Virus genome (UHGV): UHGV-0312038
Reading direction: 5' to 3' (one strand)
Length of the DNA: 63,686 bases
From: a virus
In this document: piece after piece, positions 24,317-62,523 of the stretch
Numbering within the stretch: the first letter of the stretch is position 1
Layout of the letters: every line of letters starts with the position of its first letter
Position numbers and translations under genes: made by a program
Notes under the pieces: generated by a model
Databases searched by the model: none
Seen by the model: only the letters and a program-made list of their open reading frames with translations
What the model was told of the DNA's origin: nothing

Positions 24317-27218
24317 TATAATCCAGCCGGTCAAGGTCATCCTTGTCAAGACGCCACACTCTGATGCGGGCTGACGGGATGGTAGATACACCCTTGCCGA
24401 GATTAATCCGTTCTTCCTTTATGTGGAAGCCGTCAACGCGCAGAGCTTCAAGCACGGTGCCGGGAGATGCGTTATTCTTCTGGCACCATTCTTTTACAGC
24501 CTTGCTGGATATGTACAGCACTCTGTTACGGATTTCATAGCGTGACAGGATAACCCCGTTACTAGGCCTGTACTTCACATACTTGTCAGGCATGACAAGA
24601 TTGCCGGGGTCTGGCTCATTAGGAAGCCTGTTAGCACCGGAGACAACCAGAGTACTGCGGCTCATATCCTGTATCACATCGCCGAAAGCAACAGCCCACT
24701 TCGTTTCAGCTTTGCATGTAGCCTTGCGGTTGTACGGGACAAAATCTCTGAGAACCCACTTCTCAAGAGCGTCCATATCGTAGTCAAGAAGGCCGAACTC
24801 TACGGCCCAGCGTCCGGCTTTCAGGGCTATGGCAAGAGCGTTCGACATGAAACGTTCCTCCTGATAAAAGCCGTTGCGGCGTCCCCAGTCTTCAACATAA
24901 TTACGCAGGGATACCAGCCGTTCAGGATACTGGAAGAGCTTGATTAGAAATTCCGGCCCGGCGATACCGTAGTTCTCATCATACAGCTTGGCGCATTTCT
25001 GGATGAACTCACGAATCTTGGGGTTGTCATATCTGGAGAAGTTGCACCGGTACTCCATGATACGCTGAAGCGTGGCGCTTGTATCAGTATGATAACGGGC
25101 AAGGCATTCCTTTACTGATTTATTAGCAGTCAGGAACGTGCATGTAGCCCACCGCCCTGTACGGATAAACTCAGCGCCCGATGCACGGAGCTTGTTCTTC
25201 TCCTTACCGGAAGAAATAACAAAGGCCAGATTGGAGAGGTCTTCGTCAGTAAGGTCAGTAACCTCATCCATACAGGCAGGCAGGTTGCTCAGCACGGACA
25301 TGCGCCGGCATCGCGCGGTAATGGACTCATCCTTAGAGAAGAACATCTCTTTCGGATTACCCCATACAGAAGCGCATGACTTCAGAAGCTGAGACTTACC
25401 ACAGCCTGTTTCGCTTGACCATATGGACAGCATGCAGTTATTGGCATCACCGCCGCCTATCTCCATGAGAGGAGCGGCGAAAGAAAAACACATGGCTAAC
25501 TGACCTAGTTTCTGGTCCAGTGCCCTATACATCTTCGGGACAAAAGACCACTTCTCCACAGTACCGGCATGGCCGCACATCTGCGGGATAGAGGTACGCG
25601 CAATACCGCCAAAGGCCACAGGGTGAAGCCCCGTAGACATCACGGCACCGGCTCCGGTTACAAACCCTTTATGCTTCTCTTTGGATACAGGGTCAGTAAT
25701 ATCCTGCCATCCCAGATGGTCATATGATATACGTTCCTTCGGGTCAGTTTCCACTTTGGATAGATAGGCATTTATCAGCATATTCATAACCCGTGTGTCA
25801 CAACGCGGAGTGAGCGGAGCTATACCGGCGTTGAGAAACCACTTATTAACATTCTGTCCGCTGTCCTTATCGCAATCGAAATGGACAGTCTCACACCATC
25901 CGGAAGGGCGTTCCACCCTGAAGACGTGCATACGATGCGGACGCTCGGCGTCATCTATATAGACTTCGCTTCGTATGTAATAGAGGCGGCTCTGGAATAT
26001 CCGCACATCTTCAATGACCTTCTCTTTCGGGTCAAACGGATACCAGTGAATCCCGTCATCCAGTACAGAGAAGTGGGAGTGGTCATCAGCGTCATTAAGA
26101 GCCGTATAACCACAGTCCTTATCCCAGTCCGGAATAGTGATATGACTGTCATTCTGCGGGGGGACAACAGGCTTTGATATTTCCGCCTGCCTTGAATGCA
26201 GGATACGGTGTAAAGACGCCGGAGAATTTAGAACAGCGGCATACTTGCACCCTTTGCACCCATCAGGATTGTTCACCCTGAATACATCGCAACGGGCCGG
26301 TCTGTCAGGATAAGCCTCATAAAAGCGCTTCTCGGTATCAGCCTCATTATACTTCTCGGGGCATGCACTGGACAGAACCTTAGCCACGGCAAGACCGTTC
26401 TTACAGCGGCGAAGAACAGACATAGCGGCGAACCAGTTTGGATATGACTGGCTCCCCATTGTCATTATCTGATTGCAGTTGCGCGCAATCTCTACGCCGT
26501 CATACACGGGCTCTTCAGGCCCCATACCGAAAGGGTCATCCGGTACAGGAGCTTTCTTCCGTACCGGAGCCGGAGCTGAAACGGGAACGGCGATATTCCC
26601 GAAGGCTTCAGGGTCATATGTTTTGCCGGTATTCAGAAGTACAGATACCGTGGTTCCGGACTTCTGATGTATCGTTCCGGGGATACGGAGAACGCTCGAA
26701 ATATCCCTAGCCCTTGACCTGTCTACATCCAGATTGTGCTCGGTGCAAAGCTGGAGGAAATTACCCGCAAGCTGTTTCCACTCCGCTGAGTTCACATCCT
26801 TGTTAAGCACCCAGTAAACATGCAGGCCCTTTCCAGAGGACACTATGATACTAGGCTTAAGACCTGTATCTTTACTGAACTGCACCAGTGTCTGAAGGGC
26901 TTCCTCTCTGGTCTGATACCGGCAGCCAGCTTTGGCTATATCAAGGTCAGCCCAAAGACACCTTGCACTGCGGGCATTGTTAGCCTTCCGCCCCGGTACA
27001 TAAATATCAAAGGATGCCATGGCCATATAAGTATCATAGCCATCGGCACACAGCTCACTGCTTTGTTTGACTATAGCACCAACGCTATCAGCCCTGAGCG
27101 ATACACGCTCGTTGTCCCCTCTGAGCCCCAGAATATAATACGTCTGTTCCGGCCCAAATATCCCGCTCTTTATTGGGGGGAGTATCGCCGAGAGAAATTC
27201 TGTACTGTTCATAAACAC
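24294..27218 (-). CDS. bifunctional primase-polymerase / SF3 (D5-like) helicase
   Basis: 974 aa. N-terminal AEP/prim-pol-like region (GKGLHVYWVL). C-terminal Walker A GCGKSQ and SF3-like motifs. Confidence 0.7.
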   Translation of the reverse strand: MFMNSTEFLSAILPPIKSGIFGPEQTYYILGLRGDNERVSLRADSVGAIVKQSSELCADGYDTYMAMASFDIYVPGRKANNARSARCLWADLDIAKAGCRYQTREEALQTLVQFSKDTGLKPSIIVSSGKGLHVYWVLNKDVNSAEWKQLAGNFLQLCTEHNLDVDRSRARDISSVLRIPGTIHQKSGTTVSVLLNTGKTYDPEAFGNIAVPVSAPAPVRKKAPVPDDPFGMGPEEPVYDGVEIARNCNQIMTMGSQSYPNWFAAMSVLRRCKNGLAVAKVLSSACPEKYNEADTEKRFYEAYPDRPARCDVFRVNNPDGCKGCKYAAVLNSPASLHRILHSRQAEISKPVVPPQNDSHITIPDWDKDCGYTALNDADDHSHFSVLDDGIHWYPFDPKEKVIEDVRIFQSRLYYIRSEVYIDDAERPHRMHVFRVERPSGWCETVHFDCDKDSGQNVNKWFLNAGIAPLTPRCDTRVMNMLINAYLSKVETDPKERISYDHLGWQDITDPVSKEKHKGFVTGAGAVMSTGLHPVAFGGIARTSIPQMCGHAGTVEKWSFVPKMYRALDQKLGQLAMCFSFAAPLMEIGGGDANNCMLSIWSSETGCGKSQLLKSCASVWGNPKEMFFSKDESITARCRRMSVLSNLPACMDEVTDLTDEDLSNLAFVISSGKEKNKLRASGAEFIRTGRWATCTFLTANKSVKECLARYHTDTSATLQRIMEYRCNFSRYDNPKIREFIQKCAKLYDENYGIAGPEFLIKLFQYPERLVSLRNYVEDWGRRNGFYQEERFMSNALAIALKAGRWAVEFGLLDYDMDALEKWVLRDFVPYNRKATCKAETKWAVAFGDVIQDMSRSTLVVSGANRLPNEPDPGNLVMPDKYVKYRPSNGVILSRYEIRNRVLYISSKAVKEWCQKNNASPGTVLEALRVDGFHIKEERINLGKGVSTIPSARIRVWRLDKDDLDRLDYITPSGKS

Positions 27219-31869: not shown

Positions 31870-34800
31870 CTAAGCTATGCAGTAATCCTTCCCTATCTCA
31901 GCTTCACATGCGACGGGAAAATCCCCCAGCCAATCCGGTACACTGGACATACAGGACTCCATTACGGACTTCGTATGCTCTGCTTCGTCTTCCGGACAAA
32001 TGGCAAGGAATGAGTCGTGGATATTGGCGATAAGCCGTATCCCCTGTTCTGTCATACGACAAGCCTGCCATTGCAGCAAGGCAAAAGCAAGATACTGACA
32101 CAGATTTTCCGCAAGCGCCCCGCCGTATATCTTTGTCTTCAGCTCCGACTTCCCCTTCACTCTGGTATAATAATACTCCTCCCTGTTGTTCTTCTCAGAC
32201 ACCTCACAGGAAAGTTTGAAATACCTCAGAGTATAATTATTCGGTCCAATGATAGTAGGTACATCGTCCCTCCCGCATATAGGGGCTACGCTGTACTGGA
32301 AGATATTATCATTGGGGCCGCCGAACTCTCCGGAGTACCCAAGGTACATCGCCTTAATGACCGTCTGACACGTATCCCAGAAAGCCACGATGTTCGGATT
32401 ACTGGCACGGTAAACATTGTGAGCATGATGGGCCATCTCATAATGCTGGTCAATGTCACTGCTCAGACGCACACCCTGACGGAGCAAAGTATCCGCGTAC
32501 TTCCTCCAACTAACACCATAGCCGCAATTATGAACTACAAGTGCGCCATGTTTGGTTCGTATGGTAAACCTATGATTCGGCCCCGCATTCAAGAGATCGT
32601 ATACGAGCTCTGAGTTTTTCAACCTCGGCTTGCAGTTCACTGACACGCCGCCTATTGTAGTTATTCTGAGACTTTGTAACAAACCGGAGATTACCCACTT
32701 CGTAGTTGCCATTATTGTCGATACGGTCAAGGTCGAAGTCCGGATTATCCCAGCCATCCAGTGATACAAGGTAGGCAAGAAACGCTCTACGGTCAGCAAA
32801 CTTGCATTGGATTCCACGCCCCCCGTAGTCTTTATATCTTCTACAGTGGGGGTTGTTACAACGCTGCTCAACAGCGGCAATTCTATTGAGCAAGCGTCTC
32901 CTGTGCGCAGGTTCCGGGCAAACGTCCGCGTAAGAGGAGTATAACTTAACATAGCTTTGTGATGACTTCTTCTTGGCGCAGGTGTTACACCGTGTAGTCC
33001 GTCCATTGTGGAGGTTGCTGAACAAGACCCAGTATGGTTCTGCCCCACAGGAACACTGCACCAGAACCATTCTTTCAATACGTTTCGTACCATGTACTCG
33101 TAATCTTGCGGAACGAATGACAGTGAGCTCACCAATCTTTGCACCCGGCTCATAATCTGCATAACGTGGCCTGAAAAACTTGAGATGGCTGGGGTCCCTA
33201 ACGGAGCAATGCTGGCAGGCATCAGTCGGGATTCTCCGTAAAGAGTAGATGCTAATCCATCGTAAAGCTCCACACTTGGAGCATTCGCATAAGTATCGCC
33301 CCCGTCCCCTATCATCGAACGCCATATCTCTAATGATGCGGCCCCTGTACAGAGTGCCCGGCTCAAGTATGAGCGTGTCTGAACGCACTCGCTTGCCTGC
33401 TTCCATGAAGAACCGCTTAAGATCATATGGTCTGGGGTCATCCTTACTCCATCCACATCTATTGTGTTCTTCTCGCCATTGCATATAAGTCCTTGATGAG
33501 TTACCCATTGTACACCATCCCACAATTTATCATCTTTCGACACCATAACTATGGGCTTCCACCCATTATTTGTCAATACCTCCGTATCACCTGCAAGGCA
33601 GGAAAGAATACCAGTTTTGCCAACGTTCCTGTACGCTTTCAGTTTCTTGTCTCCGGACTTAGCGCCCTTATGAATCTTCTCACTCGGAATCTGGAAAATC
33701 TTTTCAGCAAGGTCAGCGTAAGGGTCAGCCCCTCTCCTGAACGCGTCAACCAGCTCAGTCTCGTTAGCGACATAAGCAAGAATGCGCGCTTCAATCTGGC
33801 TTGAGTCGCAGGCCACAAGAGACATCCCCTCCGGTGCCTGTACTGCTTTCCTCAAAGTAAGCTGACTCGGGTCACGCTTGCTCAGGTTCTGAAGATTGAG
33901 CTTGTCACTGCTCCCCTCGGAGTTGCCAGCCGTATAACGTGACGTGTGAGCCTTGAACGCATTGAGCATAACGGGCATCGCCCTGCCGCTTTTAGCCAGA
34001 GCATGGAACGTCTCAGCCCTTGACCTCTGGATACTGGAGTTGTTCTCCAGTCTCGTCCGGACAAGAAGAGCCACGCACTCATCAGCGTCAGAAGCCATGG
34101 CCACGAAATCCAAATCAGACTTAGCCAGAGCCGGAGTATAAACCGCGTAATCCTCTTCGCTAAGATTAGTCTTCCCCTCGGCTTCCAGCTTTTTCCGCTT
34201 CGTCTCTGACTTCGCCACGCTGTATTTCATCGGCGGCTTGCGCCCGAGAAGCTCAAGCATCTTAACGAAAGAGGCGGAAGAACGAATCGCCTTCAGGAAG
34301 TCCTCATCCGATTTGAACATGAACATCCTGTTAATATCATTACGCGCCTTAGTGACCTTATCTGAAAGCTCGTTCAGGTACGCGGTAAGCATATCATCAT
34401 CAAGCCTGAGTACAGGATTGCATGCCATCTTGGCAGTTATAGAACTGAAGAGCAGGGCATCAGCAGTCACGAAAGGAAGCATGGCTTTAAAGCTCAGGAA
34501 ACATTGCTCCGTATCATTGCGGCAGTACTGGATGAATGCTGTACGTTCGTCAGGCGTGAAATCGTCCGGCCACTTCCGGCCGTCTGAAATCACCGTACCT
34601 TCCACCTTCTCGCCACACTGGAAAAATTTTGCCATGGATTTCAGTGACTCATTCTGGATTCGTGATACCCCTGTCCACCGTTCCATGCACATGGTATCTA
34701 TAGCAATCCTCGGAACCACATGGTAAATCTCGGAAAGAATAAGGAAGTCAAACCCATTCCCATTGTGGGCAACAGTCACCACGTCCGGGGCATCGAGCTT

Positions 34801-35004
34801 AAGAGCAGCAAGCACGGCGGGGATATTATCGTGTTCCGCTACCCGTACCTTATCGTATGTCATCGTACTGGCATCCGTGACAATATAACTCATGAGCTGA
34901 GCGGAAAACCTGCTGTCCCTGATATATGATATGGGGCCGATTTTTGACAGTGTATAATTTTTACTGTCCCAGTACGTCTCAAAGTCCAGTACAACAATTC
35001 TCAC
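31870..35004 (-). CDS. family-A DNA polymerase with 3'-5' exonuclease domain, interrupted by an intein (precursor 1044 aa)
   Basis: Exo I motif VLDFETY. Motif A LVACDSSQIEARILAY. Motif B KAYRNVGKTGILS / CGYGVSWRKYA split by the intein. Motif C IANIHDS. Confidence 0.8.
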   Translation of the reverse strand: MRIVVLDFETYWDSKNYTLSKIGPISYIRDSRFSAQLMSYIVTDASTMTYDKVRVAEHDNIPAVLAALKLDAPDVVTVAHNGNGFDFLILSEIYHVVPRIAIDTMCMERWTGVSRIQNESLKSMAKFFQCGEKVEGTVISDGRKWPDDFTPDERTAFIQYCRNDTEQCFLSFKAMLPFVTADALLFSSITAKMACNPVLRLDDDMLTAYLNELSDKVTKARNDINRMFMFKSDEDFLKAIRSSASFVKMLELLGRKPPMKYSVAKSETKRKKLEAEGKTNLSEEDYAVYTPALAKSDLDFVAMASDADECVALLVRTRLENNSSIQRSRAETFHALAKSGRAMPVMLNAFKAHTSRYTAGNSEGSSDKLNLQNLSKRDPSQLTLRKAVQAPEGMSLVACDSSQIEARILAYVANETELVDAFRRGADPYADLAEKIFQIPSEKIHKGAKSGDKKLKAYRNVGKTGILSCLAGDTEVLTNNGWKPIVMVSKDDKLWDGVQWVTHQGLICNGEKNTIDVDGVRMTPDHMILSGSSWKQASECVQTRSYLSRALCTGAASLEIWRSMIGDGGDTYANAPSVELYDGLASTLYGESRLMPASIAPLGTPAISSFSGHVMQIMSRVQRLVSSLSFVPQDYEYMVRNVLKEWFWCSVPVGQNHTGSCSATSTMDGLHGVTPAPRRSHHKAMLSYTPLTRTFARNLRTGDACSIELPLLSSVVTTPTVEDIKTTGGVESNASLLTVERFLPTLYHWMAGIIRTSTLTVSTIMATTKWVISGLLQSLRITTIGGVSVNCKPRLKNSELVYDLLNAGPNHRFTIRTKHGALVVHNCGYGVSWRKYADTLLRQGVRLSSDIDQHYEMAHHAHNVYRASNPNIVAFWDTCQTVIKAMYLGYSGEFGGPNDNIFQYSVAPICGRDDVPTIIGPNNYTLRYFKLSCEVSEKNNREEYYYTRVKGKSELKTKIYGGALAENLCQYLAFALLQWQACRMTEQGIRLIANIHDSFLAICPEDEAEHTKSVMESCMSSVPDWLGDFPVACEAEIGKDYCIA
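32527..33600 (-). mobile_element. class-1 intein (358 codons) inserted in polymerase motif B
   Basis: N-terminal CLAGDTEVLT (block A), TPDH (block B). C-terminal VYDLL...ALVVHN followed by +1 Cys. The flanks rejoin into a canonical motif B. Confidence 0.65.
32570..33523 (-). CDS. HNH homing endonuclease encoded out of frame inside the intein
   Basis: 317 aa in a different frame from the polymerase. Several CxxC zinc knuckles and DRIDNNGNYEVGNLRFVTKSQNNYNRR (HNH_3-type signature). Confidence 0.7.
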   Translation of the reverse strand: MGWCTMGNSSRTYMQWREEHNRCGWSKDDPRPYDLKRFFMEAGKRVRSDTLILEPGTLYRGRIIRDMAFDDRGRGRYLCECSKCGALRWISIYSLRRIPTDACQHCSVRDPSHLKFFRPRYADYEPGAKIGELTVIRSARLRVHGTKRIERMVLVQCSCGAEPYWVLFSNLHNGRTTRCNTCAKKKSSQSYVKLYSSYADVCPEPAHRRRLLNRIAAVEQRCNNPHCRRYKDYGGRGIQCKFADRRAFLAYLVSLDGWDNPDFDLDRIDNNGNYEVGNLRFVTKSQNNYNRRRVSELQAEVEKLRARIRSLECGAES

Positions 35005-38522: not shown

Positions 38523-39614
38523 TTAAAACTCCTCCTCATCGTCATCGTAGCCCAAAATAATGGGCTGGTTTCGCCCAGGTTCCTGTACAGACTCAGGTTC
38601 GGGTTCGGGTTCGGGTTCCTTCTTACCAAGCTTCTCCTGAAGCTCTGCAAGCAGACGCTCAAGCTCAGTCCGCCTGTCTTCCACAGGTTCCGGTTCAGGT
38701 TCCTTCACAGGTTCCGGTTCAGGTTCCTTCACAGGTTCCTGTACAGGTTCCTTCACAGGTTCCTGTACAGGGACAGGGACAGACATGACCCCGCCAGAAG
38801 AAAGGAACGTATCCAATGACGCAGGGTCAGACATAACATTAAGCAAACTCTTAAGGTCATTAATCCCCTCGTTGCTGTTACGCGCCTTCTTCACAGCGTC
38901 ATCCAGAGCGGCAATGACAGGCCCCACAAGGGGAAGTGTAATCCTGTACCCCTCAAGCTTCCCCCGCAGGGACTCCATGCCCTTAAGCTTGAAGCCAAAC
39001 ACGCTGGACTTCGGCTCAATAATCTCATACTGCCGCTTGGCAAGAGCGGCAATCTCATCAGTGAACGCGCTGGACAGCACCCTGCCAAGCGGCGCACTGC
39101 CGTTGTTACATGCCTCCGGGTCAAGAGCGTACTCGTACCAGTCATACGAGTACCGGGAAGCAATGTCCCCAGCCGTAGGAATGGCGGAAGAGATAGCGAA
39201 CTTCCACTTGTCTGGCGTCTGTGCCAGCCACTCCTCAACAGCCTTGGGAAGACCGCTGAGAATAGCCCTGACAGCCGCTTCAAAGTCAGTCTTGTCCGCA
39301 TGCAGGAAATCCTCCACCTCCTGTATACGAACCTTAGGAATCAGGAACCCGCCGAGGAAGTGCGTCCCGACACGCACAAGGCTGTTCCATGTACGTGAGC
39401 GTATAATCCCAGGCTCACGCAGATAGTCCTTAGGCAGGAGCTGTTTGCTCCCGAGCTTCGCCAGATAGTCTGGCGGCAGATTCTTCTGTACTTCCGGGGG
39501 GAAGTCGCCCGCAGTAAGCTTTGACATGCCTGTCCAGACCTTAATCTCAGGCATGATAATCACAGAAGAAGAGACAACATCTTTAATATTTACAATCATT
39601 TTAAACCTCCACAC
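38523..39614 (-). CDS. acidic-repeat protein encoded between the AAA+ and vWA genes
   Basis: 363 aa. PVQEPVKEPEPEP repeats and a DDDEEEF C-terminus. Confidence 0.5.
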   Translation of the reverse strand: MWRFKMIVNIKDVVSSSVIIMPEIKVWTGMSKLTAGDFPPEVQKNLPPDYLAKLGSKQLLPKDYLREPGIIRSRTWNSLVRVGTHFLGGFLIPKVRIQEVEDFLHADKTDFEAAVRAILSGLPKAVEEWLAQTPDKWKFAISSAIPTAGDIASRYSYDWYEYALDPEACNNGSAPLGRVLSSAFTDEIAALAKRQYEIIEPKSSVFGFKLKGMESLRGKLEGYRITLPLVGPVIAALDDAVKKARNSNEGINDLKSLLNVMSDPASLDTFLSSGGVMSVPVPVQEPVKEPVQEPVKEPEPEPVKEPEPEPVEDRRTELERLLAELQEKLGKKEPEPEPEPESVQEPGRNQPIILGYDDDEEEF

Positions 39615-41445: not shown

Positions 41446-42218
41446 CTCACCATCGCTTTAATGGCATAAAATGCCATTGGGTTGTCTGTTTTGTATAACG
41501 CCCGCAGCAGAGAGTACAAAGGCAGGGCCCTGTCCGCATCTGTACGGGTCATGATAAGCATAGCCTCCTGTACATCAGCGGTGCTCATGCCAAGCGCCTG
41601 ATAGCCAGACACAATCAGCTTACTGACCTTTTGATAATTGGCACGTACAATGTCCAGCTCCCTCCACTTCCGAGGCAGAAGAGCATACCGCCGTTCCAAA
41701 TCCCTAAGGTTCAGCGGCCTTGTCTCATCCGCATACAGAAGCTGTAAGGCCATGAACCAGTTGTACCGGGACACGTCCTGTACAGCAGACGACACGTTGT
41801 CAGTATTGTAGTTGTTATCAAACCGTACAAGCAGGTCAGCCAGAACAGCCCTCCTGTCCGCGGAGATAATTGAGACGTGAACCCGATACCGGAAGTACTG
41901 AAGTAGGGCAATCTCCATACCGGAAGCGATGCCTGTACAGTTGAAATAGACACTGGTTATCTCCGCTTTCTCTCGGGTTAAATCATTATCCAGTACAGAC
42001 GCAAACGCGCCCGCCCCTTCCGGGCGGCCAAGCCACTCCTTAACCGCCTGTACCCGCTCACTTGGATACGTATATCTGTACCCCATTGGGTCGGGGTACA
42101 GCCTGTAGCCACTGAACAAAAAGTTCAGCGCCCATGCGTTGGCTATACCCCTGTAGAATACCACGTCCGTTTCTCCACGATGAATGAGTTCGTGGATTGG
42201 GTACTGGCTTACTCCCAT
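41442..42218 (-). CDS. hypothetical protein, paralog A of a tandem pair
   Basis: 258 aa. 4-nt overlap with the downstream paralog. Confidence 0.5.
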   Translation of the reverse strand: MGVSQYPIHELIHRGETDVVFYRGIANAWALNFLFSGYRLYPDPMGYRYTYPSERVQAVKEWLGRPEGAGAFASVLDNDLTREKAEITSVYFNCTGIASGMEIALLQYFRYRVHVSIISADRRAVLADLLVRFDNNYNTDNVSSAVQDVSRYNWFMALQLLYADETRPLNLRDLERRYALLPRKWRELDIVRANYQKVSKLIVSGYQALGMSTADVQEAMLIMTRTDADRALPLYSLLRALYKTDNPMAFYAIKAMVR

Positions 42219-42574
42219 ATCGTGTACCTCGTCTTAGAGATGGAGGACGCTGTGGCCGTGATAGATACACGGTCTAAACAGCGTTTTAATATTCGTATGC
42301 TTATCCATTCTGGCGGATAGCCCAGGTCTACCGCCTGCGTTTCTATTGTACAATCGCGGAAGGTCGTGCTCCTCCATGTAGTACAGCCCCTGTGGGGTGA
42401 TACCTACAGTGGCGCCGCTGACTATCAGCGCGCCAGCCTGACCCGTATCCTGTACGACACGGGCCCCAAGCACAACGACTCATAGAACCCAAGATTGCAG
42501 GGCGTTATATACAGCTCCGTAATCTCGGGACAGTGTTTAATTAACATCCTGTTTAATCGCGCATCTTACACCTC

Positions 42575-42901
42575 CTAATTCACAGTGAACGCCGCGCACC
42601 CAAGAATGGTTCGCCTGTCCGCCGAGCGTACCGTCCATGTCGGCACCAGCAGGTCATGCCGGTCGGGGCATGCCTCCTGTACCGCACGGGACACGACGTA
42701 ATACGTGCCAGCCCTAGGCTTAGGCAGGTCCTGTACAGTACCTGCCTTAAGGATGACCAGCGGGATGCCGTCAACTTCTCCGGCAGCTGTCTCCTGCTGA
42801 TACACCCGGGCCACGATGCCGGATACCGGTATAGTACGGACTACTCTGCCGGTCATGTTATCTATGATGTTTATGTCATGGGGTGTGAGATTAACGAGCA
42901 T
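42575..42901 (-). CDS. hypothetical protein
   Basis: 108 aa with ribosome-binding site. Confidence 0.4.
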   Translation of the reverse strand: MLVNLTPHDINIIDNMTGRVVRTIPVSGIVARVYQQETAAGEVDGIPLVILKAGTVQDLPKPRAGTYYVVSRAVQEACPDRHDLLVPTWTVRSADRRTILGCAAFTVN

Positions 42902-42943
42902 AATTGTCTCCTTTCGATTCGTGTTGATTCGTAGTTACTAAAG

Positions 42944-43189
42944 TTAAACCCGGCACGTTGGGATGCGGTCGCTCATGTGCTTCTTCCCAACAAGCCGGAA
43001 GTTGACGGGACTCGCCGGCCCCCAGTCACGTGACACAGCCACATATACGTAGTTTGCGAGCTTGTTGACATGGCGGGAAAGGAACCGGATAAGCCTACGA
43101 CGGTTGTATACTCTATCGAGCACCGCCACGGCGAACTCATCAGGGCATCCATAGATAATGACAGTATACATTCTTCCTCCTTGATTCAT
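42944..43189 (-). CDS. hypothetical protein
   Basis: 81 aa. Confidence 0.35.
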   Translation of the reverse strand: MNQGGRMYTVIIYGCPDEFAVAVLDRVYNRRRLIRFLSRHVNKLANYVYVAVSRDWGPASPVNFRLVGKKHMSDRIPTCRV

Positions 43190-43298
43190 GTTGATTGGGA
43201 AGCGCGCCCCTTACACCGGGCCTATGGGTTATACCGCTGTATGCAGGACAGGGGCGCAGACCCTGACATACATCACTCGGTCCGGTATGGAAATCTTA

Positions 43299-43739
43299 TT
43301 AATGGTTCTCTCCGTCCACTTCCTTCCAGTCACGAAACGTGTTCTGAATATCATAGGCGTAGTACGCCGAAAACCTGTGAGCTAATGACTCCGGAGTGTC
43401 AGCCCCCTCAGCCGTGAGCGGAGCTGACTCCCAAGTCCATGGCATGCACCATGGCAAGCCGCCGGACAGATCGTCTTCCTGTACATATTCTTCCGGAGCC
43501 GAATCGGCAAACGCCGCGATGAAACGCATGACGTCCGCATCTGTATACATAATATCGAAGAAGTGGGCGTAAGGTAAAGCGTCCGCGCCTTTGCGGACAC
43601 GGCGTAAGATGGTCTTTACCGTGTCTTCCCTAACCACGGCGCAATGCCCGAGAATCTCAGGCATAACAAATGCCTTCTTGGAAAACGCCGCCTTGCGGAG
43701 AGCGTTAAGAATATCAAACGTGCGGGGATTAATGTGCAT
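43299..43739 (-). CDS. first gene of the leftward early operon; possible winged-helix regulator
   Basis: 146 aa. AGGAGG ribosome-binding site. Lies immediately downstream of operator-like direct repeats. Confidence 0.45.
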   Translation of the reverse strand: MHINPRTFDILNALRKAAFSKKAFVMPEILGHCAVVREDTVKTILRRVRKGADALPYAHFFDIMYTDADVMRFIAAFADSAPEEYVQEDDLSGGLPWCMPWTWESAPLTAEGADTPESLAHRFSAYYAYDIQNTFRDWKEVDGENH

Positions 43740-43751
43740 AATTTCCTCCTG

Positions 43752-43825
43752 TATTTTTGTTTGGGAAAAATCCTATATTTTTGTTTAGGAAAAATCGACT
43801 ATTTTTCCCTGCGGAAAAAGAGGGA
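43752..43825. promoter_or_regulatory. operator/promoter-like direct repeats upstream of the leftward operon
   Basis: Two 22-bp direct repeats (tatttttgtttgggaaaaatcc / tatttttgtttaggaaaaatcg) plus a degenerate third. Each has ATTTTT...GAAAAAT dyad symmetry. Confidence 0.4.
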
Positions 43826-43842
43826 AATATGTGTGGACTGTC

Positions 43843-44020
43843 CTGTACTGGACACTGGACGGGACAGCTCGGGGCAGTGGACAGTGGACAGAGGGACTGT
43901 CCAATAGTGGACAACGGGACACTGGACGGGCCATCCTGTACTGGACAGAAGCGGCTCGGGACAGTGGACACGGCGGCTGGACAGTGGACGGGACAGAGTG
44001 GACAGAAGTACTGTCCCTAC
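43843..44020. repeat. iteron-like array of about 20 copies of (G)TGGACAG
   Basis: For example ggcagtggacagtggacagagggactgtcc... The same 8-mer recurs through 44040-44160. Confidence 0.7.
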
Positions 44021-44169
44021 TCTAGAATACTAAGAGTAACTCTTGCCTCTTTTTAGTGGACAGAAGAAGTCCAATAATTTCAAGGGGTTACAAGCTCTCT
44101 GTCCAGCCCTGTCGTGGATTGCCAATTAAATCAGCGGGTTACGCGAACGGGTGGACAGAGCTCCGGAAA

Positions 44170-44280
44170 ACACACATATATATTTATATAATATATTTAT
44201 ATGTTTTCCCCCTCCTCCTGACCCCTCTATATTATATATATATTTTTTTTACTGTCCAAATAAAATAAATATATAGTAAT
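44170..44280. repeat. AT-rich tract, candidate DNA-unwinding element
   Basis: cacacatatatatttatataatatatttatatg ... ctctatattatatatatatttttttt. Confidence 0.5.
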
Positions 44281-44400
44281 TAGAGGGAAAAAAGTACAGG
44301 ATTTCAGCCACTTAGAAAATCACTGAATTTTTCCCAAGTGGCAATACTGGACAGAGTCGAAAAGAGTAAGTGATAACCCCTTGATTTCATTGAACTTTTT

Positions 44401-44476
44401 TTGTCCAAGGTGGACAGACTTCTGTCCACTCTGTCCACTTGCTCTGTCCACCCGCTGTCCACCCATTGTCCAGCGC
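44401..44476. repeat. five tandem CTGTCCAC iterons in inverted orientation relative to the left array
   Basis: ttctgtccactctgtccacttgctctgtccacccgctgtccacccattgtcc, with roughly 10-11 bp spacing. Confidence 0.7.
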
Positions 44477-44640
44477 AAAAATAAATACAGTATTTATTTT
44501 TCGGGCGTGAAAAATACCAGAATTAATTTTGCCACCCAGAAAAAATACCGTATTTATTTTCAGGCTGGAAAAATACGCCAATTAAAAATATCAGAATTAA
44601 TCCCGCCACCCGAAAAATACCTGATTTATTTGGACAGTTC
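44471..44640. repeat. alternating palindromic (AAATAC-N-GTATTT) and roughly 28-bp direct repeats
   Basis: aaataaatacagtatttattt; aaaaataccgtatttatttt; and two copies of aaaaatayCagaattaatyyygccaccc. Confidence 0.55.
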
Positions 44641-44774
44641 CGGTACAGAGATGCACCGGAACTGTCCCGCCCGTTTTGGCAGTCGGGCAAATGATGAATT
44701 TGCCGGTGCACTCATCCCAGTTACTGGCACACATGTGGACACGTGTATGCCTTTAGATTAAGAGCTAATTAAAT

Positions 44775-44796
44775 GGATAGGGTATATACCCTATCC
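44775..44796. promoter_or_regulatory. perfect 22-bp palindrome GGATAGGGTATATACCCTATCC
   Basis: Seen directly. The half-site AGGGTAT/ATACCCT recurs at 45632-45647. Confidence 0.4.
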
Positions 44797-44820
44797 ATTA
44801 CTAGACCACTAATAAATGGG

Positions 44821-44838
44821 TTGGGGATTTCTCCCCAA
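44821..44838 (-). terminator. hairpin (ttgggga-ttt-ctccccaa) downstream of the minus-strand gene 44847..45347
   Basis: 7-bp stem followed on the minus strand by cccatttatt. Confidence 0.35.
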
Positions 44839-44846
44839 CTCATTCC

Positions 44847-45347
44847 CTACTTCATAAGCTCGGAGAGCTTACGGAGGAAGACCGATTGGTCTTCACTTGA
44901 GAGCCTTGCATAGGCTTTCAGAAGAGCTTCTACCTTATTTAAGTTTTTCGCTACGTAGACGAAAATTTCATCCAGCAGCTTGACACGATTCATAAGGTCT
45001 TTCTTCTCGGGTGCCGACGCCTTAAGCTCTTTATCGGTGCGGTGCTCTACATAGTGGAGCATCTTTCCTTTTTTGACTTCCGACTTCTTCTCACCGAAAA
45101 GAAGGAAGGTGAGCTTCTTACGGGATTCGGCAGCTATCTTACCGCCGATAAGGCGGTAAGCTACGCACAGGTCTTCGATATCTTCGACCGAGCCGCGGTT
45201 TGCGATCCGATTGAAGGCCTTGACTTCCGCACGGGTAAAGACACGGGCAAGACCGGCCTGGACCCTTGTGGCGGCGAAAATTTCCGCACCAAACTCCCTG
45301 TTGTGAAATTTCTTTACGAAAGTAGCACGATTTTCAGACTTAGCCAT
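44847..45347 (-). CDS. hypothetical protein sitting between the two repeat-rich non-coding regions (possible regulator)
   Basis: 166 aa, K/E-rich. Confidence 0.45.
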   Translation of the reverse strand: MAKSENRATFVKKFHNREFGAEIFAATRVQAGLARVFTRAEVKAFNRIANRGSVEDIEDLCVAYRLIGGKIAAESRKKLTFLLFGEKKSEVKKGKMLHYVEHRTDKELKASAPEKKDLMNRVKLLDEIFVYVAKNLNKVEALLKAYARLSSEDQSVFLRKLSELMK

Positions 45348-45399
45348 TTTATACTCCTATCTGATCTTTACTTGTTTTTTGTTTTTGCTGTTCTCGGCT

Positions 45400-45870
45400 A
45401 GTTCCCTGCATGTCATAGTGCATCCGTACCGGTAGAGGCTATCGTCTTGTATAGGGGGACATGGGAGTAGTCCTGCCGTGCCTCCTCCGCGGGACGGAGG
45501 GCAAGGGACGGCTAGGGTCTCATATCATATGCAAGAAACCGGAGCCACGGTGATTTTGCGCGCAGTACCGCCTGGGTACCTGCGGGCTTATCGGGTGTCC
45601 GTGTACTCTGATAGCATACAGGCCGTGATACCCTAGAGGGTATGCAGGTCCGTAGTCATACTCATGTACTGCACGGCATGCCATCAGCACGTAGTAGCCT
45701 GCCATCGGCCACCTATGCTGTACCGGCACAGTACGTCCTTCTATCCCTATGGAGCGGGGCGCTTTCACCCGCAGCTCAGCTTATCGCACATCAGTGCCTA
45801 TCCCAGGCACGGGCGATCACCGTATGATAGTGAGCTTATGCACTTGAGGGGACTACCCCTCTGTCTGTAC
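45400..45870 (+). ncRNA. candidate structured non-coding RNA (GC-rich, ORF-free, many palindromes)
   Basis: About 470 nt with no convincing ORF in any frame and dense local inverted repeats. An intrinsic terminator follows on the plus strand. Confidence 0.25.
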
Positions 45871-45871
45871 T

Positions 45872-45916
45872 GACAGTATAGCGCTTTTCGCTTTATACTG
45901 TCAACGACTTTTTTTT
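45872..45916 (+). terminator. hairpin plus T8, intrinsic-terminator-like
   Basis: gacagtatagcg-cttt-tcgctttatactgtc stem, then aacgac and TTTTTTTT. Confidence 0.45.
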
Positions 45917-46010
45917 ACTTTTTACCTCCGGTGTACTGTCTTAGTGGGTGGGGGCTTATCCCCCGTCTTTCGATAGATACTTTATACGCCCATCCATGGG
46001 GTAGGTCAAG

Positions 46011-46050
46011 GACTTTTTTGACTTTTTTCTACTTTTTTCTACTTTTTTCA
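46011..46050. repeat. four tandem roughly 10-bp T-tract repeats (ACTTTTTTCT); predicted intrinsically bent DNA
   Basis: gacttttttg acttttttct acttttttct acttttttca. Confidence 0.6.
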
Positions 46051-46105
46051 CGGTGGCGGGTGGCGGGCGGTGGCGGGCGGTGGCAGGCAGGGCGGGCGGT
46101 GGCAT
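46051..46105. repeat. G-rich roughly 10-bp tandem repeats (GGTGGCGGGC); possible G-quadruplex motif
   Basis: cggtggcgggtggcgggcggtggcgggcggtggcaggcagggcgggcggtgg. Confidence 0.6.
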
Positions 46106-46270
46106 CAGCTTATCTATATATCCACATATTCATATATCTGCATATGTGCATATGTGCATATCGATATATCTGCATATTCACATATTCATCTATTTAAATA
46201 TAAGCATATCCACATATCTGCATATCAGCATATCCACATATCCACATATCCACATATCTGCATATCAAGA
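46106..46270. repeat. about 20 copies of an 8-bp repeat (yyrCATAT), including several DnaA-box-like TATCCACA(T) units
   Basis: catatccacatatccacatatccacatatctgcatat etc. ATATCCACA matches the TTATCCACA consensus at 8 of 9 positions. Confidence 0.6.
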
Positions 46271-46449
46271 TAGCCTTATATAGGGCGGGGCCTTTGGACG
46301 GCCGGCTCGCTTCGCTCGCTAGAGTAGACCTTATATATGTGCGGACACATCTCGGTCCCCCCACCCATATTGGACAGGCCCCCCATATTTATCCAGAAAA
46401 GTCTTGACTAATTTTTTACTATGCTGCACAGTTTCAACAACATTTCCAA

Positions 46450-46704
46450 ATGGAGGAGTACAGGATGCAGAAACGTATTGCCATATCTAAGATTACTGAT
46501 GACCCTGACCTGTTCAGGCGTATTTACAACTTCTGCCTTGGAGGTTACGTGGTTCTTATCCGCGGCTTTGGAACGTTCCGTCTGAAGCGCAAAGCGTCCC
46601 GTATGGGCCGCAACCCCCGTACTGGTGCCAAGTACAGGATTCCGGAGCGTGGGATTCTCGTGTTCAAAGCCTCCCCGAGTATCCGTCTTGAATACGACAA
46701 ATAA
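46450..46704 (+). CDS. hup: HU/IHF-family DNA-binding protein
   Basis: GFGTFRLKRKASRMGRNPRTGAKYRIPERGILVFKAS matches the HU beta-arm signature. 84 aa. Confidence 0.8.
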   Translation: MEEYRMQKRIAISKITDDPDLFRRIYNFCLGGYVVLIRGFGTFRLKRKASRMGRNPRTGAKYRIPERGILVFKASPSIRLEYDK

Positions 46705-54751: not shown

Positions 54752-55801
54752 ATGCCTAGAAACACTAAACAGCCTATTCAGTTCTACAGGGGCACGACAG
54801 CCCAGCATTCAGGTTATATGGGGCCTGCGGGTGAGTGCACTGTTGATACAACGAAAAACACACTCATTGTGCATGATGGGGTGAAGGCCGGTGGGTATCC
54901 TCTTGTGAAGGAGGACCACCCTGTTACTGGCGATGGATACGTGCTTGCTAATGGGAGCAGGAGCACGACTATTGGCAGTACGGCTCTTGCCCTGTCTTTG
55001 GATACAGATGCGCTCAAAAACCTGTTTGCAGACCCTTCTGGTACTGACGTAGTATCAGGAAATCTGAAACTTTCAGATGCTGTGGACAGTGAGCTTGACG
55101 CCGCTACTGGCGGTACGGCGGCTACGCCCAAAGCGGTTAAGACTGCTGTTGATGGAGCGGTTAAGAAGACATATGTTGTCAAAGGTGACACCTACATTAA
55201 AGTAGATGGCAAGGTTTCCACGACTCTTGATGACGCTGATGGTCTTGACCTGACGCTTGATACAGCCGCTCTGAAAAGTGCCCTTGCTGACCCCACGGCT
55301 ACTAATGTTGTATCTGGCAACAATATGCTTTCTGACGCTGTGGACAGTGAGCTTGATGCCGCTACTGGTGGTACGGCGGCTACGCCTAAAGCGGTCAAGG
55401 CCGCTTATGACCTTGCCGCCAGCAAGGCCAGTGATGACCTTGTCGTGCACATCCACAATGATGAGACTATTGAGGACGTGAAGACGTTCCTTCAGGGCCC
55501 TTATGGTACCTCAGCGGATTTGACAACTTCGGAGATTGACCTTTCCAAAGGCGTTGTTTTCAGCAAGACTGTCTCTGCTGATACGGTGTTTACTTTCATC
55601 AACGCTCCTTCCGGGCGTGCGGCTACGTTCAACCTCATTATTACCAATGGCGGGTCTGCTACGATTACGTGGCCGGCTTCGGTGAAATGGACAGATGCCG
55701 CCGCACCTACGCTTACTGCTTCCGGTGTGGACGTTCTGACCTTTATGACACCGAATGGTACTACATGGTATGGTACCCTTGCTATTGTTAACGCCGGTTA
55801 G
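54752..55801 (+). CDS. tail fibre protein (conserved N-terminal anchor plus duplicated roughly 95-aa module with ATPKAVK)
   Basis: N-terminal IQFYRGTTAQHSGYMGPAGECTVDT...HDGVKAGG is the common phage fibre N-terminal motif. Two near-identical internal segments. Confidence 0.6.
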   Translation: MPRNTKQPIQFYRGTTAQHSGYMGPAGECTVDTTKNTLIVHDGVKAGGYPLVKEDHPVTGDGYVLANGSRSTTIGSTALALSLDTDALKNLFADPSGTDVVSGNLKLSDAVDSELDAATGGTAATPKAVKTAVDGAVKKTYVVKGDTYIKVDGKVSTTLDDADGLDLTLDTAALKSALADPTATNVVSGNNMLSDAVDSELDAATGGTAATPKAVKAAYDLAASKASDDLVVHIHNDETIEDVKTFLQGPYGTSADLTTSEIDLSKGVVFSKTVSADTVFTFINAPSGRAATFNLIITNGGSATITWPASVKWTDAAAPTLTASGVDVLTFMTPNGTTWYGTLAIVNAG

Positions 55802-57308: not shown

Positions 57309-57860
57309 ATGCGTAATACTATCAAGCCTATACAACTGTACCGCGGCACAACGCAGCAGCATAGCGATTATGCTGGGCCTGTTGGGGAGATTACCGTTGA
57401 TACAGAGAAATATATTGTTGTAGTACAGAATGGTGTTACAGGAGGAGTGCCGCTGGCAAGAGAGTCGGATGTGACTGCGGAAGCACAAGCTCGTGAGGCC
57501 GCTGATACTGCTCTTCAGAAGAGCGTTACTGATGAGGTCTCTGCCAGAGTGGCTGCTGATAACGCTCTTCAGAAGAAGGTTACTGACGAGGCTTCCGCCC
57601 GAATGGCTGCTGATACTACTCTTCAGCACAATCTCACCAATGAGGCTTCTGCCAGAGATGCCGCTGATATTACTCTTCAGAACAATCTCACCAATGAGAT
57701 TCACGTCAGAGAGTCCGCTGATACTGCCCTTCAGAAAAGTATCACCGATGAGGCTTCTGCCAGAGAGACCGCTGATAACGCTTTTCAGAAGCAGATTGAT
57801 GACGCATATGCGGCCATTAGCGCGGTATATATAGAAGCAGGAGGTACACTCGATGGATGA
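57309..57860 (+). CDS. fibre-like protein: same N-terminal anchor motif plus 8 approximately 18-19-aa coiled-coil repeats (EASARxAADxxLQxxxTD)
   Basis: MRNTIKPIQLYRGTTQQHSDYAGPVGEITVDT. 183 aa. Confidence 0.5.
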   Translation: MRNTIKPIQLYRGTTQQHSDYAGPVGEITVDTEKYIVVVQNGVTGGVPLARESDVTAEAQAREAADTALQKSVTDEVSARVAADNALQKKVTDEASARMAADTTLQHNLTNEASARDAADITLQNNLTNEIHVRESADTALQKSITDEASARETADNAFQKQIDDAYAAISAVYIEAGGTLDG

Positions 57861-60578: not shown

Positions 60579-61028
60579 ATGTTAGCGCAGTATCGCTGGG
60601 CCTCTCTTGCTCAGGACCTTGCCGTTATGCAGGTTCCGGATACACCCATTACGGAACTTGACACTATTTATAATACATATAATATATCCGAAAAAGACCT
60701 CCAGAAGATTCTTATTGTTCCTGAATTTCAGGATATGTACAGGAACTCACTGGAACAGCTCAGAGCCAAGGGAAGCAGAGCCGGGTCTATGTACAGAGCG
60801 GGGACGCTCTCACAGGCGCTTGCGGAAAAGCTCTTCCGGGACGCGGTGAATGAGAACATGAAACCCGCTGAAGCATTGAAGCTCCTTGAACTTCTTTATA
60901 AAGTTTCCGGTTCCATGAATACAGAACAGCAGGTAGTTAATACGCAGGTTAATGTAGGTGTGGCCATCCCTGTACCGGAAGGGATGAAGAACCATAAGCT
61001 CGACCATCTCAGGAGCGCGAATGTTTAA
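60579..61028 (+). CDS. putative terminase small subunit (by position)
   Basis: 149 aa, immediately upstream of and overlapping the TerL start. Confidence 0.4.
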   Translation: MLAQYRWASLAQDLAVMQVPDTPITELDTIYNTYNISEKDLQKILIVPEFQDMYRNSLEQLRAKGSRAGSMYRAGTLSQALAEKLFRDAVNENMKPAEALKLLELLYKVSGSMNTEQQVVNTQVNVGVAIPVPEGMKNHKLDHLRSANV

Positions 61029-62523
61029 CTACGTTCCATCCCCTACAGGTCTGAGATTCCACGAATCTGACAAGTATATAAAGATGCTCTGCGGCCCTTA
61101 TGGCAGTGGCAAGTCCTGCTGTTGCGCCATGGATATTCTTTACTATGCCTGTGCCCAGCCTGTAGCTAAGGATGGAATGCGTTACTCCCGTGTTGGTGTT
61201 ATCCGTTCCACGTATCCTGAACTCACCTCCATGACCCGCAAGTCTCTTCTTGAGGTATTGCCCCGGGAATGCGGTGATATTACTGGTGCAGTAGCTCCTC
61301 TTCGCGGTGTTTATCTTATCCCTTTACAGGATGGCACTACGGTTAATCTGGAGCTCAACCTGTTTGCCCTGAAAGGCCCTGAGGACTGTAGTAAGATTCT
61401 CTCCGCTAACTGGACGTTCGCGTGGATAAATGAAGCAACCGGTGTTTCACCAGAAGTCTTTGCCGCTGTACAGACCCGTATCGGGCGTTTCCCCCCACAG
61501 GATTTAGGGGGTGTAAACTGGGGCGGGATTATCATGGACTTCAACCAGCCTGAGCACGACTCATGGCTGGACGTGTACATGAAGAACCCTGAGCCGAACT
61601 GGCTTGTTGTGAAACAGCCCCCTGCGGCTCTGCGCCGGTTTGACGAGGACGGGAAGAAGTATTTTGATGTAAACCCCGATGCGGAGAATCTCCGTAATCT
61701 GGGTGCCAAGGAAGAAGGCGACCCTGAGGATATGACACCAGAAGAGCGGGGCATGCGGTACTACCGCAACCAGATACAGACCCTGCTCAAGAACGGGCGT
61801 GTTGATGTTGTAGAGAATCAGTATTGTCTTCTTGACGTCCCTGTTGTGGAAGGCAAGCCGGTATTCTCCAACTTCTCCCCCTCCCGCCATATTGCAGACC
61901 ACGAACTCACGCCCATGATGTTTCATGAGGTTGTGCTCGGCGTTGACCAGTCTGGTATTCATCCTGCCGCGGTCATACTCCAGAATCAGGACGGCAAATG
62001 GTGCGTACTGGATGAGCTGTTCGCTGACAATGAAGGGTTTGAGAACTTCCTTTACGGTATGCTGATACCGCTTCTCCGGGGCAAGTATCACACGAATCCT
62101 GTTGTAGCGGCTATTGACCCGTCCAACCAGCGGGACTCATGGACAGGCATTACTCCCCGACAGCGTTTCGAGGAAGCCGGCATACCCGCTGTTACTGAGA
62201 TTACAAACTCTCCGAAGGCCCGTATTCAGGTTGTGGAACATATGCTCAACCTTGATACAGGCGGTCTTCTTATAAGTCCATCTTGCAAGAACGTCATTAA
62301 TGGGTTTACACATGAGTACCGGTACAGGAGGCTGAGAGCCAGTGGTTCTATCGGTACGGTGTATACCCCTCAGCCTGAAAAGAACGAAGCGTCACATTAT
62401 CAGGATGCTCTTCAGTATGCGGCCCTGCTTATACAGAAGGGCATTGATTACACTGATGACGACCTTTCCGATGTAGCCCGTAAATTATCCGAGAGCAGAA
62501 ATGTTCTTCGTAGGATTATCTAA
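61021..62523 (+). CDS. terL: terminase large subunit
   Basis: Walker A CGPYGSGKS and Walker B-like FAWINEAT. C-terminal nuclease region. 500 aa. Confidence 0.85.
   Translation: MFNYVPSPTGLRFHESDKYIKMLCGPYGSGKSCCCAMDILYYACAQPVAKDGMRYSRVGVIRSTYPELTSMTRKSLLEVLPRECGDITGAVAPLRGVYLIPLQDGTTVNLELNLFALKGPEDCSKILSANWTFAWINEATGVSPEVFAAVQTRIGRFPPQDLGGVNWGGIIMDFNQPEHDSWLDVYMKNPEPNWLVVKQPPAALRRFDEDGKKYFDVNPDAENLRNLGAKEEGDPEDMTPEERGMRYYRNQIQTLLKNGRVDVVENQYCLLDVPVVEGKPVFSNFSPSRHIADHELTPMMFHEVVLGVDQSGIHPAAVILQNQDGKWCVLDELFADNEGFENFLYGMLIPLLRGKYHTNPVVAAIDPSNQRDSWTGITPRQRFEEAGIPAVTEITNSPKARIQVVEHMLNLDTGGLLISPSCKNVINGFTHEYRYRRLRASGSIGTVYTPQPEKNEASHYQDALQYAALLIQKGIDYTDDDLSDVARKLSESRNVLRRII

Follow-up and report, generated by a model that had tools for sequence, protein, structure and literature searches.

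The DNA analysed here, the UHGV virus genome UHGV-0312038 (63,686 bases, the whole of which is termed the window), appears to be all or nearly all of the genome of an uncultured gut phage. A block of structural genes lies on the + strand up to ~24.3 kb. This is followed by a replication block on the - strand (24294-45347) that encodes a 974-aa primase-helicase, an SNF2 helicase, PolA, VWA/CobT-like and DUF3150 proteins and an AAA_5/CobS-like ATPase. From 46465 the genes are on the + strand, and include those for an HU/IHF-like protein, NrdD, dCMP deaminase, lysin, tail fibres and terminase. Region A (43740-44846), the non-coding stretch that contains the candidate replication origin considered here, lies between the genes for a 146-aa protein on its left (43299-43739) and a 166-aa protein on its right (44847-45347). 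A second non-coding stretch of 1.1 kb, region B (45348-46465), is located where leftward and rightward transcription diverge. The genes flanking region A are both on the - strand and the true point of divergence is region B, so that region A does not stand at the head of the leftward replication operon, where a sequence-only reading of the locus had placed it.

Region A is filled with short repeats related to TGGACAG, with the site consensus A-S-T-G-G-A-C-A-G. The exact octamer GTGGACAG is found 14 times in the window, where 2.26 ± 1.56 copies are expected, and none of 100 shuffled sequences reached that number. Ten of the copies are in region A, an enrichment of 141-fold over the rest of the window. 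On the same basis TGGACA and GGACAG, each with 23 copies in region A, are enriched 27-fold and 15.5-fold respectively, GGACA (30 copies) 10-fold and GGAC (36 copies) 4.4-fold. The sequence-only reading had counted ~30 copies of the octamer; the repeats are real, but a count of 30 applies only to the 5-nt core. Only three places in the window proved dense in repeats in an unbiased scan for clustered 7-mers: regions A and B, and a repeat within coding sequence at 38.7 kb.

The sites are distributed on both sides of an A+T-rich core. Furthest to the left is a dense array (43833-44016, + strand) of ~20 (G/C)TGGACAG-type sites, mostly 5-8 bp apart and including a tandem repeat of the heptamer GTGGACA (2.4 copies in the window phage); most other sites are irregularly spaced. 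It is followed by a set of proximal sites on the + strand (44057-44158), comprising TGGACAG at 44057, TCAAGGGGTTAC at 44080-44091, CTGTCCAG at 44099, TCAGCGGGTTAC at 44131-44142 and GTGGACAG at 44151-44158. To the right of the core there is a proximal TGGACAG on the + strand at 44348, and then the right array (44401-44473, - strand). This is far less dense, and is made up of TTGTCCAA, four exact copies of CTGTCCAC (44422, 44431, 44444 and 44455) and the variant TTGTCCAG (44466), with a single GTGGACAG on the + strand at 44410. The five phased repeats described previously on this side are therefore four exact copies plus the variant; their spacings of 9, 13, 11 and 11 bp are roughly one helical turn. 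The opposed orientation of the two sides is a real bias but is not pure, with 20 + and 6 - sites on the left (43833-44160) and 7 - and 2 + sites on the right (44250-44480).

The A+T-rich block of ~110 bp that had been noted between the arrays is indeed present, 44170-44280 being 78% A+T. Of all the 50-bp and 100-bp duplex windows in the 63,686 bases, the least stable fall within this block; the 100-bp minimum is at 44176-44280, with a duplex ΔG of -103 kcal/mol compared with -111 kcal/mol for the next site. The full core (44165-44287) comprises two imperfect A/T palindromes (44165-44209 and 44223-44287) separated by a short C-rich spacer, and CTGTCCA (44252-44258) lies at the centre of the second of these. 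We propose that the core is a putative DNA-unwinding element. Searches of Rfam at gathering and permissive thresholds, together with a tRNA scan, returned only chance miRNA-like matches on the A/T palindromes.

A single dyad axis, near 44230, is common to three motif families, namely the TGGACAG sites, which point inward from both sides, the IHF-like sequence TCARNGGGTTAY and outer arrays based on GAAAAATAC. Three copies of TCARNGGGTTAY are present in the window, where 0.11 are expected, and all are within region A, two on the + strand to the left of the axis and one on the - strand to the right. The right-hand copy AATCAAGGGGTTA (44374-44386) agrees with the IHF consensus WATCAANNNNTTR at every position, and mirrors the two left-hand copies as an inverted repeat. 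The right outer array (44477-44631, + strand) contains ~six units of 15-31 bp built on GAAAAATAC. Palindromes of two kinds alternate here, AAATAC-N-GTATTT and TATTTTTC-N6-GAAAAATA. The former, at 44483 and 44543, are interleaved with GAAAAATAC units of ~30 bp, much as the sequence-only reading had described. That reading did not include the GAAAAATAC units (24-30 bp) or the TCARNGGGTTAY sites as motif families, and overlooked the left outer array (43747-43818, - strand), in which three 24-bp units read TTTTTCC-N5-AAAAATA-N4-GA on the - strand. They correspond, in inverted orientation, to the AAAAATAC units on the right, and the last of them merges into the ribosome-binding site (AGGAGG) of the first leftward gene. 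A role for the ACAGGA-containing 24-mers as a CsrA sponge was considered and dropped, as the units on the right do not conserve the GGA.

Beyond the right outer array lies an inverted repeat with a 16-bp stem formed by GGACAGTTCCGGTACA and TGCACCGGAACTGTCC (44632-44667). The stem has undergone a compensatory change in the related phages L089 and L149, from TTCCGG/CCGGAA to TCCCGG/CCGGGA. The perfect 22-bp palindrome reported at 44775-44796 was confirmed. It is one of two terminator-like hairpins on the - strand (44775-44839), the other being GTTGGGGAGAAATCCCCAAC at 44820-44839, and both come directly after the stop codon of the 166-aa gene. Judged by its sequence and position the palindrome is probably a terminator, outside the origin-like element. 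In the L125 type two hairpins of different sequence occupy the same position. The changes in relatives are at the loop centre.

The related gut-phage contigs referred to here, ~ten in number, were recovered from IMG/VR and ENA/Logan data, and eight of them span region A at full length. The sequence-only reading had asked whether the arrays are conserved in relatives. They are; the block 43747-44667 can be aligned in all ~ten, with the positions of the sites near the core fixed. In 8/8 of the full-length relatives the left proximal sites are at identical offsets from the core, and the core is bracketed by an inward-facing pair of TGGACAG sites at -14 and +87. The right array is kept in all relatives, with 3-5 copies.

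Away from the core there is more variation. The left outer array has 2-6 copies in the relatives, and adjoins the ribosome-binding site of whichever gene stands first. The right outer array differs in both copy number and exact unit; in L125 it consists of five perfect copies of a 24-mer that is an inverted version of the left 24-mer. The heptamer tract has two copies in the window phage and eight in L002, and a 22-bp unit of the left dense array is present twice or three times in strains that are otherwise identical. L145 is a recombinant of two region-A types. Several relatives that keep region A are missing the 146-aa gene and an 81-aa gene, and the whole of 41572-43747 is missing in one. 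Because its gene is missing in relatives that retain region A, the 146-aa protein, which had been suggested as a possible binder, is disfavoured in that role.

By contrast the A+T-rich array of region B is hypervariable in the relatives, where it takes the form of other 8-mers, of ~nine 33-bp palindromic units, or of nothing at all. Unrelated 33-bp units take its place in L041, L125 and 168574; it is missing in L145 and nearly so in L149. Because this array is absent or replaced in some relatives, region A is, on these alignments, the constant cis element. A non-coding region of 1.17 kb is also present upstream of the same operon in the distant relative L175 (whose AAA_5 protein is 55% identical), with clusters of TGGACA/TGTCCA flanking the 100 bp of the locus that are richest in A+T. 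A scan of IMG/VR with the AAA_5 protein of the L175 lineage gave no match, and neither did a search of 50,697 phage records with the DNA of 43300-45400. Pseudomonas phage Rollin, whose helicase is 23% identical, contains no comparable array.

The 974-aa primase-helicase (24294-27218, - strand) comprises an N-terminal archaeo-eukaryotic primase (AEP) PrimPol domain, a Cch/SaPI-Rep-like helicase (SaPI, staphylococcal pathogenicity island) that matches DUF927 in Pfam, and a winged-helix-like C-terminus. When a profile of the C-terminal 481 residues was compared with all PDB sequences the only matches were Cch of the staphylococcal cassette chromosome SCCmec (5dgk, E 5e-11) and SaPIbov1 Rep (8tch, E 1e-9). 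The same two structures were the top matches of the AlphaFold model in Foldseek. By sequence comparison, then, this protein is homologous to the self-loading helicases SaPI Rep and SCCmec Cch. Its winged-helix-like segment is ~97% identical between phages of the window type and those of the L125/L041 type, and the last ~65 residues are identical except for the final two. These phages have the TGGACAG motif in common and differ in their region-B arrays. The identity of the segment would be consistent with recognition of region A by the helicase, but is equally consistent with recognition by any other conserved protein. The divergent helicases of L166-L170 show 43-47% identity, and phages with helicases in this range include IMG/VR 3300045988_109512, _168214, _167164 and _172979. 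A second protein of interest is a 79-aa member of the HU/IHF family of DNA-binding proteins (46465-46704, + strand; Pfam Bac_DNA_binding, E 1.2e-12), the gene for which adjoins non-coding regions in all relatives. This could be the protein that binds the three IHF-like TCARNGGGTTAY sites.

The origins of SaPIs have 6-12 short repeats (penta- or hexamers) in opposed halves around an AT-rich centre, which are bound by the winged-helix domain of Rep, a helicase that loads itself and that in SaPI5 is fused to a primase (PMC9371898). Specific binding of the repeats by Rep and melting of the origin without ATP also characterise this class. Region A has the same general layout, with opposed short repeats (~26 sites to the left and ~9 to the right) around an A+T-rich centre, and at least two repeats on each side in opposite directions. 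The phage helicase is likewise of the DUF927 type, MCM-like, with a predicted C-terminal winged helix and a primase fusion as in SaPI5. Because the helicases are homologous and the origins of SaPI Rep are of like layout, 43747-44667 is tentatively interpreted as a phage replication origin of the self-loading-helicase (SaPI-Rep) type, the best-supported of the readings considered, although it falls a little short of probable.

We infer that the 974-aa helicase may bind the TGGACAG repeats, and that replication may start in region A. The winged-helix C-terminus would recognise the TGGACAG sites, and the opposition of these across the A+T-rich core would place two helicase rings head-to-head, one on each side. 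The core would then melt, allowing the fused AEP primase to begin bidirectional DNA synthesis. Bending or wrapping of the DNA at the three IHF-like TCARNGGGTTAY sites, to which the phage HU/IHF-like protein may bind, might aid melting, and the A-tract-rich outer GAAAAATAC arrays could act in the same manner.

Region A also differs from the SaPI origins, being ~900 bp in length with two extra symmetric motif families, and belonging to a 64-kb phage genome without detected lysogeny genes rather than to a satellite. Several further observations weigh against the proposed origin. The repeats are of 7-8 bp and present in 23-36 copies, compared with 6-12 repeats of 5-6 bp, and a stretch of the left array is a run of uninterrupted 7-bp repeats with no helical phasing. 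SaPI origins come directly after rep, whereas region A is 16.5 kb upstream of the start of the helicase gene; the end of that gene (24294) is a convergent junction without a non-coding region. The AlphaFold model of the helicase is poor, with a predicted local distance difference test (pLDDT) value of 47 overall, and the winged-helix call derives from ~130 residues with values of 70-93. The winged-helix DNA-binding domains that Foldseek lists next after Cch and Rep, presumably matched by the last ~130 residues, are non-significant (E of at least 0.27). In L175 the orientation of the clusters closest to the core is direct rather than inverted. TGGACA forms the -35 element of promoter-like sites, so that a purely transcriptional role is possible. 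Lastly, region B, 2 kb from region A, is the second least stable duplex segment, coincides with the strand switch and with the minimum of cumulative GC skew, and contains five DnaA-box-like ATATCCACA sequences (with one mismatch) within an 18.6-copy array of an 8-bp AT-rich unit.

Since region A is not adjacent to the helicase gene, and its repeats exceed the usual number and length, the element is best described as one that would work like the SaPI-Rep origin family without being a strict member of it. The stronger proposition, that this is the first SaPI-Rep/Cch-type origin to be recognised outside satellites and chromosomal cassettes, in a phage of full size that is probably lytic, and that it has a nested mirror-image build, we consider doubtful. 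If true, it would be an origin with ~30 heptamer/octamer helicase sites, phage-specified IHF-like bending sites and expandable outer A-tract palindromes. Copy numbers differ between near-identical strains, so that expansion and contraction of the repeats may then tune the strength of the origin. In a more exotic variant of this proposition the arrays would also sequester a DNA-binding protein of the host.

The alternative that survives best is that region A is a transcriptional control hub, in which the TGGACAG and GAAAAATAC arrays are operators for a phage regulator, e.g. a ribbon-helix-helix protein that polymerises on heptads. The arrays would then flank core promoters serving the leftward replication operon and a short transcript that runs rightward. 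We regard this as unlikely, yet deserving of serious consideration. TGGACA is one mismatch from the -35 consensus, and TGGACA-16-TATAAT on the - strand (44258-44231) scores 11/12. On the + strand TTACTG-17/18-TATAgT (44249-44277) is kept in both the window type and the L125 type, but the L125 type does not retain the strongest leftward promoter, and the seven promoter-like matches are no excess over the 5.1 ± 2.4 found in shuffled sequence. The terminator-like hairpins that follow the 166-aa gene imply that an operon promoter is needed within region A, and the abutment of the left outer array on the ribosome-binding site of the first gene would also suit a regulatory function. There is a precedent in the omega protein of pSM19035, which binds contiguous 7-bp repeats of mixed orientation in arrays of 7-10 heptads that are both operator and parS (PMC9499535). 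Region A recalls those arrays in having 7-bp repeats, direct and inverted and in part contiguous, although its GTGGACA tandem has 2.4 copies (eight in L002) and most of its sites are irregularly spaced, where operators of the omega or ParR type have four or more contiguous repeats of 7 or 11 bp. The omega arrays, too, lie beside promoters, in Firmicute elements. The omega system differs in needing a ribbon-helix-helix protein and a ParA partner, and in having no meltable core between opposed sets of repeats. Pfam/PHROG scans of 59 open reading frames (some small ones being unscanned) revealed no ribbon-helix-helix or other regulator, and no ParA, ParM, TubZ, integrase or repressor. Moreover, 30+ sites, three motif families and a 120-bp meltable core far exceed what a promoter needs. 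Note that the two functions are compatible and could both be true, as transcription-activated origins are known.

It is improbable that region B is the real origin and region A an accessory such as a replication enhancer, a second site like crr of phage P4 or a control locus. The properties of region B given above do point this way, as do its T-rich and G-rich decamer arrays, the adjoining HU/IHF-like gene and a right edge that is conserved even in L175. However, the GC-skew check that had been suggested found a minimum at 45-47 kb that coincides with the coding-strand switch and does not separate regions A and B; GC skew was therefore rejected as an origin discriminator. The array of region B is unidirectional, with no separate unwinding element, and its replacement or loss in relatives would be unexpected for an essential origin, where the C-terminal segment of the helicase remains ~97% identical.

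The repeat arrays of region B occupy 46012-46266, and consist of ACTTTTTTCT (3.9 copies), GGTGGCGGGC (4.6 copies) and the 8-bp unit. The conserved right edge (46283-46365) has the form GGGGCCTTTGGACGG-N43/44-CACATCTCGG-N-CCCCC. It is conserved in all relatives, and is present in L175 where nearly all other non-coding sequence has diverged; a pattern scan for this element found only close relatives and one chance match in coding sequence. At the other end of region B there is a non-coding stretch of ~500 nt (45400-45915, + strand) that is GC-rich and dense in hairpins, ending in a terminator-like hairpin and T8 run at 45871-45915. It is a candidate phage non-coding RNA on the basis of these features, and has four sequence variants, a few compensatory base pairs and no match in Rfam. 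The idea that the 166-aa or 188-aa gene and the region-B array swap as one cassette is weakened by L145 and L149, which have the 166-aa gene without the array. In L145 an IS605-type element (893-2430, with a Y1 transposase and a TnpB/Cas12f-like gene) is inserted beside the HU/IHF-like gene.

The C-terminal domain of the alpha primase-helicase of phage P4 binds iterons of the octamer TGTTCACC, and a second cis site, crr, lies 4.5 kb away. Similarly, the proposed origin in region A has an 8-bp repeat in both orientations, and the phage encodes primase, helicase and a (predicted) origin-binding C-terminus in one polypeptide. In both cases the origin is not beside the 3' end of the initiator gene, and there is a second repeat-rich cis region nearby. 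The P4 helicase is of another family and the copies are far fewer; moreover ori and crr share their iteron, while the repeats of regions A and B are different.

Classical iteron origins (lambda ori/O, P1 oriR/RepA, pSC101 and R6K) are reviewed in PMC4980987. They resemble region A in combining repeats, an A+T-rich unwinding element and an IHF-type bending site, with bent or A-tract DNA nearby. Their iterons are 17-22 bp, few in number and helically phased, whereas the core repeat of region A is 7-8 bp with a spacing of ~11 bp only in the right array. They are bound by a dedicated Rep encoded beside or around the origin, usually with DnaA boxes. No Rep-type initiator gene adjoins region A, on Pfam and PHROG scans of both neighbours, and no match to the DnaA box TTATCCACA with up to one mismatch occurs inside 43740-44846, compared with five in region B. 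Region A is not, therefore, a classical iteron origin. The sequence-only reading of an iteron-type origin with a DNA-unwinding element holds as far as opposed repeats around the most meltable DNA are concerned, and fails in the type of origin.

A role for region A in partition, as a centromere-like site, or as a decoy to which a host factor binds, we regard as very improbable. In having a promoter-like core between two sets of short repeats it is reminiscent of R1 parC, and retention of the core motif in the distant L175 is as expected for a slowly evolving binder. The heptad arrays also resemble parS of pSM19035 (PMC9499535). As a decoy, CTGTCCAC resembles the TT(A/G)TCCACA family of DnaA boxes, and TGTCCAC matches 6/9 positions of the DnaA box TTATCCACA and 7/9 of the variant TTGTCCACA. 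The NrdD of the phage is closest to those of Oscillospiraceae and Bacilli metagenome-assembled genomes, and AGGAGG ribosome-binding sites precede the genes; from these two properties the host is likely to be a Firmicute gut anaerobe. In such a host the DnaA box is TTATCCACA, and the repeats, which have G at position 3, lack the conserved A at position 9. A partition site is disfavoured by the absence of ParA, ParM and TubZ among the scanned open reading frames. Least probable of all is a packaging signal or physical genome end (cos/pac, or T7-like heptamer arrays flanking a terminal repeat). In its favour, contigs of three relatives end inside region A and at least nine inside region B, and the combination of an IHF-like site with repeated protein sites is reminiscent of lambda cosB. 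However, the breakpoints vary between contigs, and both the large terminase (61021-62523) and the likely small subunit (60579-61028) lie at a distance of 16 kb. The complete contigs 165917 and 168574 start and end with overlaps of 33 and 32 nt in a tandem array, i.e. they are circular assemblies cut at repeats. Clustered contig ends were consequently rejected as genome termini, the tested ends overlapping within tandem repeats, and the suggestion of a centromere-like or packaging site made by the sequence-only reading finds no support. The repeats of regions A and B explain why assemblies of these phages break there, the assemblies of most relatives breaking in region B.

Replication origins are essentially unmapped in uncultured gut phages. 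The proposal of a helicase-loading origin in region A is directly testable, since it couples a conserved element in cis to one particular initiator domain that can be purified. If correct, it would extend initiation by self-loading helicases of the SaPI/SCCmec kind from satellites and cassettes to bona fide phages, and could provide a compact origin module for vectors in Clostridia-type hosts. Judged by the 446 metagenome homologues of a gene neighbouring region A, the phage lineage is abundant. Because the scans described above revealed neither an integrase or repressor nor ParA, ParM or TubZ, the phage looks lytic.

Neither the 146-aa nor the 166-aa protein has a significant match in Pfam or PHROG, the latter having two sub-threshold matches only. 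The 166-aa protein gave no match in a scan of GTDB genomes, and its AlphaFold model (pLDDT 51) is unusable. The genes just downstream of region A (41572-43739) are variable cargo, the 146-aa and 81-aa genes or the entire stretch being lost or replaced in relatives in which region A is retained. Elsewhere in the window, the PolA gene (31870-35004) contains an in-frame insertion of ~360 aa (about 32523-33601) with a match to an endonuclease PHROG; it is missing in several close relatives, and so looks like an intein or a homing-endonuclease insertion. The N-terminal domain of a tail-fibre-like protein (54752-55801) is Mtd_N (major tropism determinant). In-frame tandem repeats are present in three coding sequences, namely the DUF3150 gene (38682-38771, period 12/24 bp), a gene of the tail region (57495-57791, period 54/108 bp) and a structural gene (14549-14866, period 117 bp).

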